Assembly (NCBI GenBank): GCA_041687695.1
Contig: JAWLBL010000004.1
Span: 64,001-128,000, forward strand
DNA: 64,000 bases
From: Myxococcota bacterium
Lineage (GTDB): Bacteria > Myxococcota_A > UBA9042 > PHBI01 > JAWLBL01
Direction of reading: 5' to 3'
Shown here: positions 12,795 through 57,495 of the stretch, piece by piece
How positions within the stretch are numbered: the stretch's first letter is position 1
How the letters are laid out: each line of letters begins with the position of its first letter
Notes under the pieces: generated by a model
Database searches by the model: none
What the model was told of the DNA's origin: nothing
The model's input: only the letters and a program-made list of their open reading frames with translations
Program-made: the position numbers and the translations under genes

Positions 12795-13967
12795 ATGATG
12801 TCGGTCACCTTGTTGTCCCTGTTCACCGCGTTGAGCGCGACGGCCCTGCCCGGGGTCGACCCGGCGGACGTGCCCGCGCCCGAGCTGAAGCCGGGCGGGG
12901 CGGCGGCCCCCAGCGACGCCGAGCGGGCCCGGCAGGCCCGAGGGCGCTGCGAGGCCGGAGACCTGGCCGGGTGCGTGGCCCTGGGCGTGGCGCTGCGGGA
13001 CGGGCAGGGCGCGCCGCGCGACGTCAAGCAGGCGCTGGGGCTGTTCGAGCGGGCCTGCGAGGGCGGGCAGGCGACCGGCTGCACGCACCTGGGCGCGGCG
13101 GCCTTCCAGGGCCAGGGCACGGCCAAGGACGCCGCGCGGGCGGTGGCGCTGTTCCGGCGCGGCTGCGACGGCGGCGACCCGCGCGGCTGCACGGCGCTGG
13201 GGATGGCGCACGAGCTGGGGGCGGGCGCCAAGGCCGACCCGGCGCGGGCGGGCGCGCTGTACGCGAAGGGCTGCGACGGCGGCGACGCCTGGGGCTGCGC
13301 GAACCTGGGCATGCTGCACGGGCGCGGCGAGGGCGTGGCGCGCGACGAGGTGCGGGCGCGGGCGCTGCTCGAGCGGGCGTGCAAGGCCGAGTACGCGACG
13401 GGCTGCACGCTGTTCGGCGAGGCGCTGGCGACGGGGCAGGGCGGCCCGCGCGACCCGGCCCGGGCGGCCGCGGCCTTCTTGAAGGCGTGCCAGGGCGGAC
13501 ACGCGCCCGGCTGCACGCGGCTCGCGCGGCTGCTGGTGCGCGGCGACGGCGTCCCGAAGGAGGCCGCGCAGGCGGCGGAGCTGCTGACGGCGGCGTGCGA
13601 CGCGGGCGACGCGCAGGGCTGCGACGACCTGGGGGTGATGTGCGCGGCGGGCAAGGACATCCCGCCCGACGTGCACTGCGCGCAGACCCGGTTCCGGGCG
13701 GCCTGCGAGCGCGGCGCCCCCAGCGGCTGCCGCCACCTCGGGCAGCTCCATGCGCGGGGCACCCGCGGGACGCCCGAGCCCAAGCGGGCCGCGCCGTGGT
13801 ACACCAGGGCCTGCGACGCGGGCGACGGCGAAGGCTGCGCCCTGCTGGCCGCGCTGGTCGAGGCCGGCTCCGGCGCGCCACGGGACCCGGCCAAGGCGGC
13901 CGCGCTGCGGGCCCGCGCGTGCCAGGCGGGCCACCGGGCGTCGTGCGGCGAGGCCGCGACCCCCTGA
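12795..13967 (+). CDS. Secreted Sel1-like repeat protein (Cys-paired, Hcp type)
   Basis: Signal peptide; ~9 repeats of ~36 aa (GC..LG.....G.G...D...A..L...AC). Confidence 0.9.
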   Translation: MMSVTLLSLFTALSATALPGVDPADVPAPELKPGGAAAPSDAERARQARGRCEAGDLAGCVALGVALRDGQGAPRDVKQALGLFERACEGGQATGCTHLGAAAFQGQGTAKDAARAVALFRRGCDGGDPRGCTALGMAHELGAGAKADPARAGALYAKGCDGGDAWGCANLGMLHGRGEGVARDEVRARALLERACKAEYATGCTLFGEALATGQGGPRDPARAAAAFLKACQGGHAPGCTRLARLLVRGDGVPKEAAQAAELLTAACDAGDAQGCDDLGVMCAAGKDIPPDVHCAQTRFRAACERGAPSGCRHLGQLHARGTRGTPEPKRAAPWYTRACDAGDGEGCALLAALVEAGSGAPRDPAKAAALRARACQAGHRASCGEAATP

Positions 13968-17768: not shown

Positions 17769-17980
17769 GGCTCCGTGGCGGGCCGCCTGGCCGGGCGGCC
17801 GAGTCGGCGAAACCTACAGGCCGGGGCGCTCCATGCCAAGCGCCGTTCCCGCAAACGAACCGGCCCTGGCGCGGTCACAGATTCGACGGCCCGACCGATC
17901 CCCGCGGCCTCGCGGGCGTGCTATACGGGGGACATCGCTTCGAAGACCGCCCCCCGCTCGCCTGCCAGGCGCCCCCCTGC

Positions 17981-18060
17981 GCCCGGTCACGAGTCGCGTT
18001 GCGCGCCCAGTCACGAGCCGCGTTGCGCGCCCAGTCACGAGCCGCGTTGCGCGCCCCGTC
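17981..18060. repeat. 24-bp tandem repeat, 3.3 copies
   Basis: GCCCRGTCACGAGYCGCGTTGCGC at 17981, 18005 and 18029, with a partial copy at 18053. Confidence 0.9.
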
Positions 18061-52393: not shown

Positions 52394-53425
52394 GTGAGTC
52401 GCCAGCGCTTGGTCGACCTGCGCTCGGACACGGTGACGCGTCCGACCCTGGGCATGCGCGCCGCGATGGCTCAGGCCGAGGTGGGCGACGTCTGCTTCGG
52501 CGACGACCCGACGGTGACCCGCCTCGAGCGCGCCGTCGCCGAGCGGCTGGGCAAAGAGGCCGCCCTGTTCGTCCCGACCGGGACCATGGCCAACCAAATC
52601 GCCGTCGCGGTCCACACCCGACCCGGCGACGCCGTCCTGCTCGACCGCCGCGCCCACATCGCCCTGTGGGAGGCCGGCGCCTCGGCCGTGCTGGCCGGCG
52701 TCCAGCTGGTCGGCGTCGACTCCGACGACGGCCTGCCCACCCCCGACGCGCTGGCCGCCGCCGTCTACGCCCCCCACGTCAAGGCGCCCCAGCCGCGCCT
52801 GCTCGCCCTCGAGGACACCCACAACGCCGCCGGCGGCCTCGCCCACAACGTCGCCGCGCTGGCCCCGGCCCTCGACTTCGCCCGCCAGCGAGGCCTGGCC
52901 ACCCACCTCGACGGCGCCCGCCTCTTCAACGCCGCCGTCGCGACCGGCGACGACGTGGCCTCCCTCGCCGCCGGCTTCGACACGGTCAGCCTCTGCCTCT
53001 CCAAGGGCCTGGGCGCCCCGGTCGGCTCGCTCCTGGCCGGCCCCCGCGACCTCATCGCCCGCGCCGACGCCTGGCGGCACCGCCTGGGGGGTGGCTGGCG
53101 CCAGGCCGGCGTCCTCGCCGCGGCGGGCCTCCACGCCCTCGACCACCACCCGGCCCGCCTCCCCGAGGACCACGCCCGCGCCCGCGTCCTCGCCGCCGCC
53201 ATGACCCAGGCCGGCGTCGCCCACCCCGTCCACGACGTCCAGACCAACATCGTCTACTTCCACGTCGACCCCGCCTGGGGCACCGCCCAGGCCTTCGCCG
53301 CCGCCCTGGCCGACCGCGGCGTCCTCGTCGGCGCCACCGCCCCCCAGCGCGGCCGCCTGGTCACCCACCTCGACGTCGACGACGCCGCCCTCGCCCGCGC
53401 CAGCGAGGCCCTCGCGGCCCTCTGA
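52394..53425 (+). CDS. ltaE: Low-specificity L-threonine aldolase
   Basis: DLRSDTVTRPT, GDDPTV, FVPTGTMAN, HLDGARLFNA, CLSKGLGAPVGS, GGGWRQAG. Confidence 0.93.
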   Translation: MSRQRLVDLRSDTVTRPTLGMRAAMAQAEVGDVCFGDDPTVTRLERAVAERLGKEAALFVPTGTMANQIAVAVHTRPGDAVLLDRRAHIALWEAGASAVLAGVQLVGVDSDDGLPTPDALAAAVYAPHVKAPQPRLLALEDTHNAAGGLAHNVAALAPALDFARQRGLATHLDGARLFNAAVATGDDVASLAAGFDTVSLCLSKGLGAPVGSLLAGPRDLIARADAWRHRLGGGWRQAGVLAAAGLHALDHHPARLPEDHARARVLAAAMTQAGVAHPVHDVQTNIVYFHVDPAWGTAQAFAAALADRGVLVGATAPQRGRLVTHLDVDDAALARASEALAAL

Positions 53426-53482
53426 GCCGGCCCACCCCGCCGCCTCCAGCGCGAAACTCCACCGCGAGCAGCGTCGGCCGCG

Positions 53483-53860
53483 CTCTTCGATGAAGAATCC
53501 GACGGCCCAGCCCCGCCGAGACGATTCTTCGATGAAGAATCCCGCTGTCGAGCCCCGCCGAGACGATTCTTCAATGAAGAATCCCGCTGTCGAGCCCCGC
53601 CGAGACGATTCTTCAATGAAGAATCCCGCTGTCGAGCCCCGCCGAGACGATTCTTCAATGAAGAATCCCCATGTCGAGCCTCGCGCTGCGGTTTCTTCAT
53701 CCCAGAATCGTCCCCGCCACCCTCGCGCTGCGGTTTCTTCATCCCAGAATCGTCCCCGCCACCCTCGCGCTGCGGTCTCTTCGTTCCAGAATCGTCCCCG
53801 CCACCCTCGCGCTGCGGTCTCTTCGTTCCAGAATCACCCCCGGCACCCTCGCCCTCCGGC
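53483..53860. repeat. Array of nine 42-bp units with palindromic core
   Basis: Each unit is a 17-nt YTCTTC-N5-AGAATC core plus 25 nt; units 2-5 contain the perfect palindrome GATTCTTC-N3-GAAGAATC. Confidence 0.95.
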
Positions 53861-53864
53861 CACC

Positions 53865-55160
53865 TCATCGAAGGCTCGTCCCGTCGCCGGCCGCCCCCGG
53901 CTTTCCAACGGCCCCCTCCGCGCCCTCGGTCCACCCGCCCCGGGGCGGAGCCGTCCGCGTCCGCCGCTCGGCCATCTTCCGCGCCACGAACCCGGCACCC
54001 AGCTCCGTCCGGGCGACGAACAGGTTGTGCGCCTGACACACGACCCGAACGTTCGCGATGGAGTGAGCCCCGCCCTTCGCGAACGCCTCGTCGTGGTGCA
54101 GCTCCAGCCGCCGCGTCTCGGTGCACCGGCCCCCCGCGCCCACGAACGTGCACCGCAACCCGTCCCGCGCGACCACGGCCCGCCTGACCTCCGCCGGAAT
54201 GGCCCGCCCCCGCCCGCCAACCAGCTCGCCCGACCCGCTGGCCTGCCCGACCGACTCACCGGCCTGCTCGACCGACCCGCCGGCCTGCTCGACCGACTCA
54301 CCGGCCTGCTCGACCGACTCACCGGCCTGCTCGACCGACTCACCGGCCCGTTCCGCTGGGTTCGTCATGGCCGCGCTCTCGGCCTGCTCGACCGCCTTGG
54401 AGACCGCCTTCTTCGAAGGTCGCTTGGCCCCCACCCCGAACCGCTGCTTCTTCTTCGCGGCCAGGAACACATCCAGCGCCATCTCCAGCAGCGTCTCGTA
54501 GTCGCCTGACGCGACCCGATGCCCCGAGATCGCCATCGCCTCCTCCAGCTTGGCGGCCACCCGCGCCCCGACGGTCACCTGCACCCGATACCGAGCCTCC
54601 GAGAGCGGCTCGACCCGATGCTTCGGCTTCGGTCGCTCCAGCGCCAACTCGCTCTCTCGCGCCTTCGGCTCGGCCAGGGTCTGCTTCGCCGCCTCGTCCC
54701 GCCCGCCCCGGGGCGGCGGCAGCTTCACCACCCGCGCCGGCACGTCCGGCCGCGGCGCCCACCGCGCCACCAGCTCCACCAGCTCCCGCTTGCTCTTCCC
54801 AGCCGCCTCGGCCAGCCGCTCCACGGCGTTCCCTTCCCCGAGATGCGGTCCGATGACCCTCATCCCGCTCAGGCTCAGCCGTCCGTCGGCCAGCATCGCC
54901 CCCATCTCGGGCCACCGCCTCACCCACTCGACGGCCTTCACGTAGTTGTAGGCCTTGTCTTCTCCGAAGCCCCACCGGTCGCGGCACCACGCGAACAGCG
55001 ACGCGCTGCCGTCGCCCAGATGAAGCTCCCGCGCCTCCACCTCGGCCAGGTGGACGACCAGGTTGGCCGTCGTCCGCCGCTCCAGGTGTACCAGCTCACC
55101 GACCCGCCCCAGCAGCCGCTCGTCGGACAACTTCTCCAGCATCTTCAGCCCCTTGCGCAT
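53865..55160 (-). CDS. HNH endonuclease-domain protein (N-terminus resembling DUF222/13E12-type proteins)
   Basis: C-terminal IPAEVRRAVVARDGLRC..C....LELHH....AKGG....N...CQAHN; helical N-terminus LSDERLL..LVVHLAEVEAR; GGGAGG RBS. Confidence 0.88.
   Translation of the reverse strand: MRKGLKMLEKLSDERLLGRVGELVHLERRTTANLVVHLAEVEARELHLGDGSASLFAWCRDRWGFGEDKAYNYVKAVEWVRRWPEMGAMLADGRLSLSGMRVIGPHLGEGNAVERLAEAAGKSKRELVELVARWAPRPDVPARVVKLPPPRGGRDEAAKQTLAEPKARESELALERPKPKHRVEPLSEARYRVQVTVGARVAAKLEEAMAISGHRVASGDYETLLEMALDVFLAAKKKQRFGVGAKRPSKKAVSKAVEQAESAAMTNPAERAGESVEQAGESVEQAGESVEQAGGSVEQAGESVGQASGSGELVGGRGRAIPAEVRRAVVARDGLRCTFVGAGGRCTETRRLELHHDEAFAKGGAHSIANVRVVCQAHNLFVARTELGAGFVARKMAERRTRTAPPRGGWTEGAEGAVGKPGAAGDGTSLR
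54241..54345. repeat. In-frame 21-bp tandem repeat x5 inside the HNH gene
   Basis: GCCTGCTCGACCGACTCACCG units encoding (GESVEQA)n. Confidence 0.92.
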
Positions 55161-55414
55161 CGCCCACCCCTCCCAATCGAGGCCCGAAGCATACCACGGG
55201 GGTCCCGGCCCCCTCGGAACGCCCCCTGGACGCCCGTTCAGCGCCTCCGGACGACGCGCGACGACCCTCTCCCCGGATCAGCGCGTCCTGGAGCCCGCCA
55301 GGCCGCTCCCAGGGCCCGTCTACCTCCGACCTCCGATCGCCCGCCGAGGGCTCCAAGAATCCGTCAACAACTATTTCGCCCCTCGTCCCCTCTCGAGGTC
55401 GATTTTGCCCCCTC

Positions 55415-55910
55415 CCGCCCCGGGACGACGAGCCGCCCGGGATCTCCGCCCCGGGACGGCGACCCGCCCCGGGGGTCTCCGCCCCGGGACGACGACCGGC
55501 CCCTGGGCTCTCCGCCCCGGGACGACGCCCCGCCCCTGGGATCTCCGCCCCGGGACGACGACCGGCCCCTGGGATCTCCGCCCCGGAACTACGACCAGCT
55601 ACCGCCCCGGGACGACGCCCGCTCGTACTGTCGCCCCGGAACTACGACCAGCTACCGCCCCGGGACGACGCCCGCTCGTACTGTCGCCCCGGAACTACGA
55701 CCAGCTCCCGCCCCGGGACGACGCCCGCTCGTACTGTCGCCCCGGAACTTCAACCAGCGCTCCCGCCCCGGAACTACGACCAGCTACCGCCCCGGGACGA
55801 CGCCCGCTCGTACTGTCGCCCCGGAACTACGACCAGCTACCGCCCCGGGACGACGCCCGCTCGTACTGTCGCCCCGGAACTTCAACCAGCGCTCCCGCCC
55901 CGGGACGACG
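55415..55910. repeat. Composite non-coding array: 18 copies of YCGCCCCGG(G/A)AC with four linker types
   Basis: Unit lengths 31,33,33,33,33,24,29,24,29,24,29,26,24,29,24,29,26, then a partial unit. Confidence 0.95.
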
Positions 55911-56202
55911 ATCCGCGCACCCAACCACAGCCTGCCTCCACCTCCGCTCCCACCCATAACCTCAGACTATCACGCCCCCATGCCGCACCCCCGCTCACCC
56001 CAGCCCCTCGCGACCCAGTCCGCGCCTCGGGACGCGCAGCGGCCCGGACGCCCCCGTCCGGGCCGATATCAGCTCTCCCAGCCGCAGCGGAGGCCGGGGT
56101 CAAGGGCTTTGTCGTCCGCGAGGAATTGGCCGGCCGAAGGACGGCCAAGGGGGGACAAAGCCCTTGATGCCGGCCGAAGCGGAGGCTACCGCGCCTCCTC
56201 AA

Positions 56203-56345
56203 CCCGCTCGTCCCGCTCGTCCTGCTCGTCCTGCTCGTCCTGCTCGTCCTGCTCGTCCTGCTCGTCCCGCTCGTCCTGCTCGTCCTGCTCGTCCTCCTCG
56301 CCCCTCTTCGTCCTCCTGGTCCTCCTGGTCCTCCTGGTCCTCCTC
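56203..56345. repeat. 9-bp pyrimidine-rich tandem repeat
   Basis: (CCYGCTCGT) x ~10 grading into (CCTCCTGGT) x3. Confidence 0.9.
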
Positions 56346-56574
56346 CCCGATAGCGTCCAGCGCCGCCCCCAATCCCCCTCACCCCCCCCCCCGGAATCCC
56401 CACCCCCCACCCACTGTTTCGCCCCCTCGGCCGAACTTCCCGGTGGACTCCACCGCCTGAACGGCCCCAAAGTGCGCCCCGACGCGACCGAGCCTCGCGC
56501 CGCCCCCCAAACGCGGGCCCACCCCTCGCTCCCCACGAGCGCGCCCCCGGCCCGGATCACCTCAGAGCACAGCC

Positions 56575-57495
56575 ATGACCGAACGAGCGTATCGCGCTGG
56601 CTTCGTCGCCATCGTCGGCCGGCCCAACGTGGGCAAGTCGACGCTGATGAACCAGATCGTCGGCGAGAAGATCGCCATCGCCACCCCCAAGCCGCAGACG
56701 ACGCGCGAGCGGATCCGCGGCATCCGCACCTTCGACGACTGGCAGGTCGTCTACGTGGACACGCCCGGCATCCACGAGGCGCGCACGGCCCTGAACAAGT
56801 TCATGGTCGACACCGCCGTCGGGACGCTGTCGGACGTCGACCTCACCTACCTGCTGGTCGACGCGGCGCACATGAACGCCAAGCCCGACCAGGTGCTGGC
56901 CGAGACCGAGCGGGTCGTGGCCGCCATCACCGCCGCGGGCGCGCGCACCTTCCTGGTGGTCAACAAGATCGACCGCCTGAAGGACAAGGCCGCGATGCTG
57001 CCGCTCATCGAGCGGCTGACCGCCCTGTACCCGTTCGACGAGGTGGTGCCCGTCAGCGCCGCGACCGGCGACGGCGTGGCGCAGCTGCTCGAGCTGACGC
57101 GCCCCCACATGCCCGAGGGGCAGGCCCTGTTCCCCGGTGACGAGCTGACCGACCGCTCGATGCGCTTTCTGGCCGCCGAGCTGGTCCGTGAGCAGCTGTT
57201 CATGCAGCTGTCCGACGAGCTGCCCTACCACGTCGCCGTGAACGTCGAGGACTGGCAGGAGCGCGACAACGGCACCGCCGCCATCCACGCGACCATCCAC
57301 GTCGCGCGCGACAGCCACAAGGGCATCGTCATCGGCAAGGGCGGCCAGCGCCTCAAGACCATCGGGCAGAAGGCCCGGCAGAACCTGGAAGACTTCATGC
57401 AGCGCAAGGTCTGGCTCGAGCTGCACGTGCGGGTCGAGGACGACTGGACCGACCGCGCCGCCGCCCTGCGCAAGCTCGGCTACACGGAGAGCTGA
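56575..57495 (+). CDS. era: GTPase Era
   Basis: GFVAIVGRPNVGKSTL, KPQTTR, DTPG, NKID, SA, ELPY and KH domain KGIVIGKGG. Confidence 0.97.
   Translation: MTERAYRAGFVAIVGRPNVGKSTLMNQIVGEKIAIATPKPQTTRERIRGIRTFDDWQVVYVDTPGIHEARTALNKFMVDTAVGTLSDVDLTYLLVDAAHMNAKPDQVLAETERVVAAITAAGARTFLVVNKIDRLKDKAAMLPLIERLTALYPFDEVVPVSAATGDGVAQLLELTRPHMPEGQALFPGDELTDRSMRFLAAELVREQLFMQLSDELPYHVAVNVEDWQERDNGTAAIHATIHVARDSHKGIVIGKGGQRLKTIGQKARQNLEDFMQRKVWLELHVRVEDDWTDRAAALRKLGYTES

Follow-up and report, generated by a model that had tools for sequence, protein, structure and literature searches.

The DUF222-HNH genes of the REP13E12 kind, which combine the Pfam domains PF02720 and PF01844, are the closest described relatives of the element reported here. 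The function of 13E12/DUF222 genes is given as undefined (PMC13061034), induction of the 13E12 genes is attributed to DNA damage and LexA (PMC13157036), and the mycobacterial repeats mark hotspots of inversion and gene conversion (PMC13061034, PMC13157036; our comparison also draws on PMC10589994). We analyzed a window of 64,000 nucleotides from a Myxococcota bacterium (assembly GCA_041687695.1, contig JAWLBL010000004.1, positions 64,001 to 128,000), in which a gene for a 431-amino-acid HNH protein lies between ltaE and era. With a probability of roughly 0.62, we read this gene and the palindromic repeats around it as a selfish cassette, whose single HNH protein binds the cassette's own palindromes and which is copied into intergenic sites via nicking and host repair synthesis. 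The feature is real and is kin to a known but unexplained kind of gene. No description of this element was found in the literature searched, the coverage of which excludes most subscription journals.

The N-terminal and HNH domains of the protein are homologous to those of the DUF222-HNH proteins (hhalign 97.8%, E 7.5e-13, against a DUF222-HNH protein of the same genome). Both kinds of gene are dispersed and multicopy (22 copies here), and both have a link to the SOS response, represented here by a LexA-type box. They differ in the middle domain, which in our protein is predicted to be a ribbon-helix-helix, and the four DUF222-type genes of the host genome have neither the arrays, nor the structured end module, nor the long-spaced leader described below. 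The Pfam model for DUF222 (PF02720) matched none of 83 homologs at an E value of 0.01 or lower, and five paralogs with 15 to 21 bits do not reach its cut-off of 24.4 bits. These sequence comparisons place the protein as a sister of DUF222/13E12, not as a member.

Other described systems resemble parts of the locus. REPtrons and TIRtrons, with their Y1 HUH enzymes (RAYT, TIRYT), set one enzyme gene between inverted palindromic repeats (PMC3733652, PMC6006769), a layout seen here at 10 of the 22 copies (those with at least two downstream units) but not at the window copy, and their REPINs occur as gene-less inverted doublets elsewhere in the genome (PMC3733652), as such doublets do here. Here, however, the enzyme is an HNH protein with no HUH/Tyr match, so that covalent strand transfer is not expected, and its gene is multicopy with an optional downstream arm. 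Ssn, a GIY-YIG protein with NTS/SRM hairpin repeats, is likewise a non-transposase nuclease flanked by its own palindromic repeats in a layout like that of an insertion sequence (IS) (PMC11893778). It differs in its nuclease fold and its small single domain, compared with three domains and 380 to 430 residues here, and the 431-residue HNH protein gave no GIY-YIG match. Site-specific cleavage of single-stranded DNA beside the hairpin repeat is a further mark of Ssn. Free-standing HNH homing endonucleases share the combination of an HNH nuclease with a separate DNA-binding part, and in both cases spread would rely on host repair. Unlike theirs, the present copies sit at unrelated sites and not at an allelic site. 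The recognition-like site travels with the element here, and two of three empty sites do not have it.

ParB, Noc and KorB, with their sites parS, NBS and OB, resemble the protein in the predicted fold of residues 26 to 143 and in having a palindromic site, with CCCGGG at the center of NBS (PMC7383237), but the present model has no CTP-binding N-terminal domain and is fused to a nuclease, and the fold scores are middling. With IscB/OMEGA and other RNA-guided HNH effectors only the HNH domain is shared (Z 6.9 over 59 residues); the profile score of 22.7 bits is far under the cut-off of 175, and no guide-like RNA was found. Classical insertion sequences differ in their DDE transposase, as profile scans of our protein hit only HNH families; the 3' ends of the present copies are variable, and the genomes with empty sites are too diverged for target-site duplications to be read. 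The locus provides a candidate substrate (a palindrome of 18 to 20 bp), element ends, empty sites and a predicted inducing signal, and the spread of these genes is therefore directly testable. If it is true that a nick and host repair suffice, this would be a transposition route outside the known transposase chemistries.

Insertion between ltaE and era

The host genome (G000; the other genomes compared are G011, G190, G068, G221 and G228) comprises 7.97 Mb in 63 contigs. Among 19 era loci fetched from relatives, 14 had ltaE within the fetched stretch, and in 13 of these 14 the two genes abut or overlap (11 with 38 to 113 nt between the matches and 2 with an N-terminally extended era); the remaining relative has 778 nt between them. 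In the window, 3149 bp separate the ltaE stop from the era start, and the comparison indicates that this interval is an insertion. The empty ltaE-era sites which a first-pass annotation, made from the letters of the window alone, had suggested looking for are, short of the precise site that a congener would give, present in 13 of the 14 relatives. Elsewhere, three of four G221 copies tested are absent at the orthologous site of its congener G228 (the fourth is shared), and of seven same-family genomes tested for one G011 copy, none has it. The host gene that follows one G221 copy (L106) has a 97-bp frameshifted copy of its start behind another (L105), a stretch absent from the empty site.

Some further observations concern these neighborhoods. 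The pair ltaE-era (window 52394-57495) is apparently conserved in most same-order relatives and is split here by the insertion; G011 has a small unrelated open reading frame (ORF) between the two genes. The same IS-like element, whose ORF is presumably transposase-like, lies directly downstream of two G228 copies (L269/L276 on C14 and L280 on C24). Two G228 copies, L289 (C29) and L268 (C14), both match the 1.5-kb upstream flank of the G221 copy L110 (96% and 89%), which suggests that a copy was duplicated together with its flank.

Copies and layout of the cassette

The gene has 22 dispersed copies in the host genome, with amino acid identities of 51 to 76%; 21 are full-length and one is without the N-terminus and leader. 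This number is a lower bound, because arms at C10, C11, C13, C30 and C47 are cut by contig ends. The common layout is an end module (E), a spacer, an array, a leader of about 250 bp and the ORF, followed optionally by an inverted array and an inverted E. Array units stand upstream of all 22 copies, and E stands upstream of all 19 that are not cut by a contig end. Downstream, at least two array units were found at 10 of the 22 copies and E, by exact motif, at 6. The window copy is one-armed, without the inverted downstream arm. The features of the window are as follows.

53426..56574: whole insertion interval from ltaE stop to era start, 3149 bp; ltaE and era adjoin in 13 of 14 relatives
53484..53859: array of nine 42-bp units that fall into two subtypes but keep one register; specific to the locus and distinct from the family array
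53865..55160, minus strand: nuclease gene P0001, 431 amino acids, one of 22 genome copies
53991..54203, minus strand: HNH domain, about residues 320-390, with its zinc ligands and catalytic residues retained; structural matches to McrA (Z 7.5) and GVE2 HNH (Z 7.4)
54224..54348, minus strand: in-frame 21-bp repeat (six copies, Tandem Repeats Finder, TRF) encoding a 7-residue linker repeat; low-confidence region of the model
54411..54587, minus strand: predicted ribbon-helix-helix-like domain, residues 192-250; weak match to 3no7
54732..55085, minus strand: helical DNA-binding domain predicted to resemble ParB/KorB/Noc, residues 26-143; homologous to the DUF222 N-terminal part
55188..55196, minus strand: extended -10-like box TGnTAnnnT, 174 bp downstream of TTGAC
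55226..55242: LexA-type box, one mismatch against the published M. xanthus SOS box (PMC9705874)
55363..55367, minus strand: -35-like TTGAC without a normally spaced -10; found in 101 of 115 homologous loci
55416..55911: family array of 18 units, 24-33 bp long, all variants of the CCCGGG-centered palindrome or of its half-site
56029..56190, minus strand: structured end module E, a long stem with side hairpins, starting GGTAG; fixed outer element end in G000
56206..56345: 9-bp tract, 15 copies (TRF), adjoining E on its outer side; one of the locus-specific tracts seen at E ends

The first-pass annotation had described much of this inventory correctly: a single 431-residue gene with an intact Zn-HNH motif between ltaE and era, nine 42-bp units beginning a few bases after its stop, 18 units about 255 bp before its ATG, and a 9-bp tract further upstream (15.4 copies by TRF). 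The repeat inside the gene is also present, at 6.0 copies and not the five proposed. Its statement that most tandem-repeat DNA of the 64 kb lies here is right if only strong repeats are counted (score of at least 100; 1210 of 1620 bp), but with every TRF call included the share falls to 1210 of 2945 bp. Its picture of a gene enclosed by two arrays is wrong for this copy, as the downstream 42-bp array is a different repeat and the window copy has no inverted downstream arm. The 22 copies, the hairpin end module and the leader motifs had been overlooked.

Gene-less inverted E-array-E units occur at C27:85536-86497, C7:201564-202476 and C3:293000-295046. Where both arms of a copy were scored, they are each other's best match in three of four cases and second best in the fourth. 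The genes are under purifying selection, with a median dN/dS of 0.31 over 210 non-independent copy pairs, and the linker repeats of other copies differ from the 21-bp repeat of the window. Folding of E is strong on both strands (z -4.2 and -5.6), with compensatory pairs at 4 of 52. TRF tracts adjoin 25 of 38 E ends, compared with 71 of 600 post-stop control windows, some of the tracts being duplications of E or of other repeat families. As a separate observation, the inward-reading strand has an excess of G over the 100 nt beyond E in G000 (mean skew 0.39, positive in 35 of 36).

The family-wide palindrome

A profile of the family recovered 10,748 protein clusters (at 50% identity) with E values of at most 1e-30, named at most "HNH endonuclease" or "hypothetical". 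At least 16 of 200 genomes of the phylum have a match, several with eight or more copies, and Candidatus Eisenbacteria is among the multicopy lineages (580 loci confirmed, the best 80 used). One family member found no match in 72,556 plasmids or 50,697 phages.

A palindromic site recurs at these loci. Copies in G011, at 30 to 40% identity, have arrays of a CCCCGGGG-centered palindrome and their own inverted structured arms. G221 copies have a single palindrome about 255 bp upstream and a second at the ORF end, and many other homologs carry a single palindrome and no array. At many Eisenbacteria loci (L125-L204), the palindrome lies in frame inside the first linker, at +450 to +600 from the start and sometimes twice. 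With the fixed positions AC-N4-YCCGGR-N4-GT, the site is present at 54 of 105 loci and has no occurrence in 257,311 bp of outer flank. The array unit of G000 is a variant of this family site outside the strict pattern. At the five variable positions, the arms are complementary in 34 to 36 of 43 distinct sites, versus 14 to 27 after shuffling. A variant with a TTCGAA center and unchanged ACT...AGT outer arms was seen at L087 and L088, downstream of the HNH motif.

The palindromic site, and not the flanking genes, sets the ends of the cassettes. The end module E is specific to its lineage: G011 has another module, and the copies of G221 and G228, which nevertheless have empty sites, are marked by single palindromes alone. 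The loci of G221, G190 and G068 showed no long inverted arms; such arms are lineage-specific.

The protein

The HNH and Zn residues C337, C346, H356, C375, H378 and N379 are kept in 82 to 83 of 83 aligned homologs. AlphaFold2 models have mean predicted local distance difference test scores of 79.9 (whole protein) and 95.8 (residues 1 to 150). Among 48,161 chains, the top four matches to residues 26 to 143 are KorB (Z 7.1, root-mean-square deviation (rmsd) 3.6, 97 aligned), ParB (7.0, rmsd 6.7, 110 aligned), KorB (6.4) and Spo0J (6.0). The Foldseek check of this domain that had been suggested returned Noc/ParB/Spo0J proteins for its top eight matches, but all at E above 1 and nothing at 0.001 or lower. 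Residues 192 to 250 match weakly the plasmid centromere-binding protein 3no7 (profile E 0.026, Z 5.0, rmsd 8.1, 58 aligned), which we take to be a ribbon-helix-helix protein. In the predicted architecture, a ParB/KorB-like domain is thus followed by a ribbon-helix-helix and by an HNH domain that is intact. ParB reads palindromes via its helix-turn-helix, and the Noc site is CCCGGG-centered (PMC7383237); on the basis of the model, the protein is therefore a plausible reader of the family palindrome.

The leader and the LexA-type box

In 101 of 115 homologous loci, the motif TTGAC stands 170 to 300 bp ahead of the start, compared with 1 to 6 of 106 to 124 in control windows. TGnTA follows it at 169 to 175 bp in 91 of 122 leaders and at 182 to 186 bp in 11 (one of these a duplicate locus), and the two spacing classes, about 172 and 183 bp, differ by one helical turn. 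Searched across G000, the strict box pair peaks solely at 174 to 175 bp, with 21 matches that are all family copies over a background of 0.1 per distance; with a looser -10 the peak is at the normal 22 to 24. In G221, 10 of 14 matches to the long-spaced pattern are family copies, and the remainder there and the matches in four other genomes are near control level. The pattern was not seen at the 11 Y1 and 4 DUF222-type loci of G000.

We found no explanation for the fixed gap between these promoter-like halves. The sequence between TTGAC and the -10-like box showed no conservation across lineages, and leader RNA folding is unremarkable in four lineages (z -0.9 to +0.3). A/T periodicity in the leader peaks at 10.0 bp, but the controls were not motif-anchored and the G000 peak is at 11.75. 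Our guess would be that the boxes are joined by looping of the intervening DNA.

CTGAAC-N4-GTTCAG with at most one mismatch is present in 20 of 21 G000 leaders (0.01 in shuffles), the search pattern having been drawn in part from these same leaders. The 67 non-coding matches in G000 take in a perfect box at dnaE2 and others at recN, gyrB, a DEAH helicase gene and the four DUF222-type HNH genes, while the recA at C27 does not appear in the set. None of 100 leaders from other lineages holds the box, and SOS control would thus be at most lineage-specific. In M. xanthus, a box with two mismatches did not bind LexA (PMC9705874). From the sequence, the host DNA-damage response is predicted to switch the gene on in the G000 lineage. 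The four DUF222-type genes (L325-L328, on C40, C12, C22 and C16; three above the Pfam cut-off) each have a LexA-type box just upstream, and at the C22 gene it lies inside a normally spaced -35/-10 pair.

Proposed mechanism

That the cassettes are mobile is, judged from the comparisons above, highly probable. For the copying chemistry, nick-primed host repair synthesis is our candidate at slightly less than even odds. In the G000 lineage only, DNA damage would lift LexA repression of the gene together with that of dnaE2. The protein would then dimerise on the palindrome, and its HNH domain would nick the DNA, leaving a 3'-OH and no ligating intermediate. Such products are general to HNH cleavage, in which a ligating intermediate is absent. 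Starting at the upstream arm, a host polymerase would then run through the gene and end at no exact point, which could leave one-armed copies such as that of the window, captured flanks, fold-back second arms and slipped tandem arrays. Compared with cut-and-paste, copying that is imprecise and error-prone better fits an upstream end that is fixed and a downstream end that varies, captured flanks, arms that resemble each other within a copy, tracts at junctions and the strong divergence of intact copies.

Several points, in addition to those given above for the LexA-type box (its search pattern, its narrow distribution and the M. xanthus result), weigh against this reading. Palindrome binding, HNH cutting and jumping are deductions from sequence and structural models. 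The genomes with empty sites are about 85% identical, too diverged for junctions, target duplications or the direction of gain versus loss to be read, and one of the three empty sites retains a palindrome with one mismatch. Flank capture is clear in one of eight copies tested, marginal in a second (p 0.015) and absent in six. There are no near-identical copies (the lowest dS between copies is 0.17, and the window copy is 0.36 from its nearest), and hence no sign of recent activity. The fold scores of the N-terminal domain (Z 6.0 to 7.1) are under the tool's caution line of 8, and the Foldseek matches have E above 1. The homologous loci are clustered by kin, 80 being mostly Eisenbacteria, and 51 of 105 do not have the fixed-position site. 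The complementary changes in the palindrome, finally, point to hairpins or fold-back copying over plain binding of double-stranded DNA.

Among the interpretations of the first-pass annotation, that of a selfish element with arrays serving as its ends or as binding sites is supported by the 22 copies, the empty sites, the family-wide palindrome and the predicted palindrome-binding fold. That local nicking and repair expanded the repeats is an inference with which the locus-specific tracts and the tandem copying of units agree. Its third proposal, guide RNAs, finds no support here.

Alternative explanations

A bolder version of the cassette model is possible, though we consider it rather doubtful. 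It would make the family a new class of mobile bacterial DNA, spanning thousands of protein clusters and using no transposase, integrase or reverse transcriptase, in which the ParB-like/ribbon-helix-helix/HNH protein tethers the palindromic ends to a nicked target and an error-prone SOS polymerase copies the element. Its promoter would be a looped one, with about 150 bp (14 or 15 helical turns) looped out.

It is unlikely that the hairpin arms are instead moved in trans by one of the HUH/Y1 transposases of the genome, in REPtron/TIRtron style, with the HNH gene as a passenger or maintenance nuclease. TnpB and IscB have a maintenance-nuclease role for IS200/IS605 and would be the model for such a gene. 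The genome does have 11 Y1 genes, and the strong two-strand folding of E with its compensatory pairs and the gene-less inverted units would suit them. E also begins with GTAG, a REP tag (PMC3733652). However, neither E nor the array motif lies within 1.5 kb of any of the 11 genes, and no match to PF01797 (Y1 HUH) was found at the 22 copies. E is confined to its lineage, and copies in G221 and G228 that have single palindromes still show empty sites. Across phyla, it is the HNH gene that the palindrome accompanies, even within the linker. The Y1/RAYT-like genes (L064-L074) are in many cases at contig ends. Another palindromic repeat family of G000 (138 motif matches in 38 clusters, e.g. C15:152871-153496 and C54:78) adjoins Y1 transposase genes on C15 and on C54, and insertions of it are also found within or next to the arms of some HNH copies.

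We regard as similarly improbable a host-kept family of SOS nucleases with rare duplication or recombination, for which the palindromes would be autoregulatory operators and the arrays by-products of nicking and error-prone repair. Purifying selection and the divergence of all copies would be expected of such genes, as would the LexA-type box shared with repair genes, the repressor KorB as top fold match and the missing plasmid and phage matches; 13E12 loci also recombine often in M. tuberculosis (PMC13157036, PMC13061034). What it leaves unaccounted for is the distribution of the copies, which occupy unrelated intergenic sites, one of them splitting a conserved gene junction, and whose number is patchy across the phylum (16 of 200 genomes as a lower bound, several with at least eight). 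The cassette ends follow the palindromic site and not the flanking genes, and gene-less derivatives are present.

It is very unlikely that transcripts of the arrays or the leader act as small guide RNAs of the HNH protein. The arrays do look the part, with a constant core and a short variable spacer, and the HNH part hits the IscB model weakly, but 70 of 96 inter-core spacers recur unchanged within their own array and most are 9 to 14 nt long. Many homologs have a single palindrome and no array, the leader folds no better than stated above, the model has no RuvC match, and an Rfam scan of 52 to 58 kb gave no match up to E 5.

Least credible are assembly artefacts or chance repeats near an ordinary HNH gene, since, although several copies stop at contig ends and one arm holds an N gap, the same array core stands at all 22 copies, unit differences run in orderly blocks, the palindromic site recurs across phyla, and a low-depth contig of another sequencing run covers the ORF-array junction (53782-53949) with 5 differences. 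Among sequencing runs, one small-share DNA run and no RNA run was listed for the sequence; the joints of that DNA run, at 80% likeness, are not credible.

The 42-bp array and other repeats of the window

The 42-bp array downstream of the gene stands outside the family layout. Its first subtype contains a 19-bp palindrome. The only other full 42-bp array in G000, C7:54029-54320, has no HNH gene nearer than 5 kb. The window array is most likely a separate repeat that was present at the 3' junction or expanded there, and the C7 array possibly represents a separate repeat family. The C7 array shares the TTCTTC...GAAGAATC core and lies between two host genes, with hairpin-rich DNA after it. Other repeats that TRF calls in the window are a 24-bp unit in 3.4 copies at 17979-18060 and a 108-bp unit in 1.9 copies at 13134-13335.

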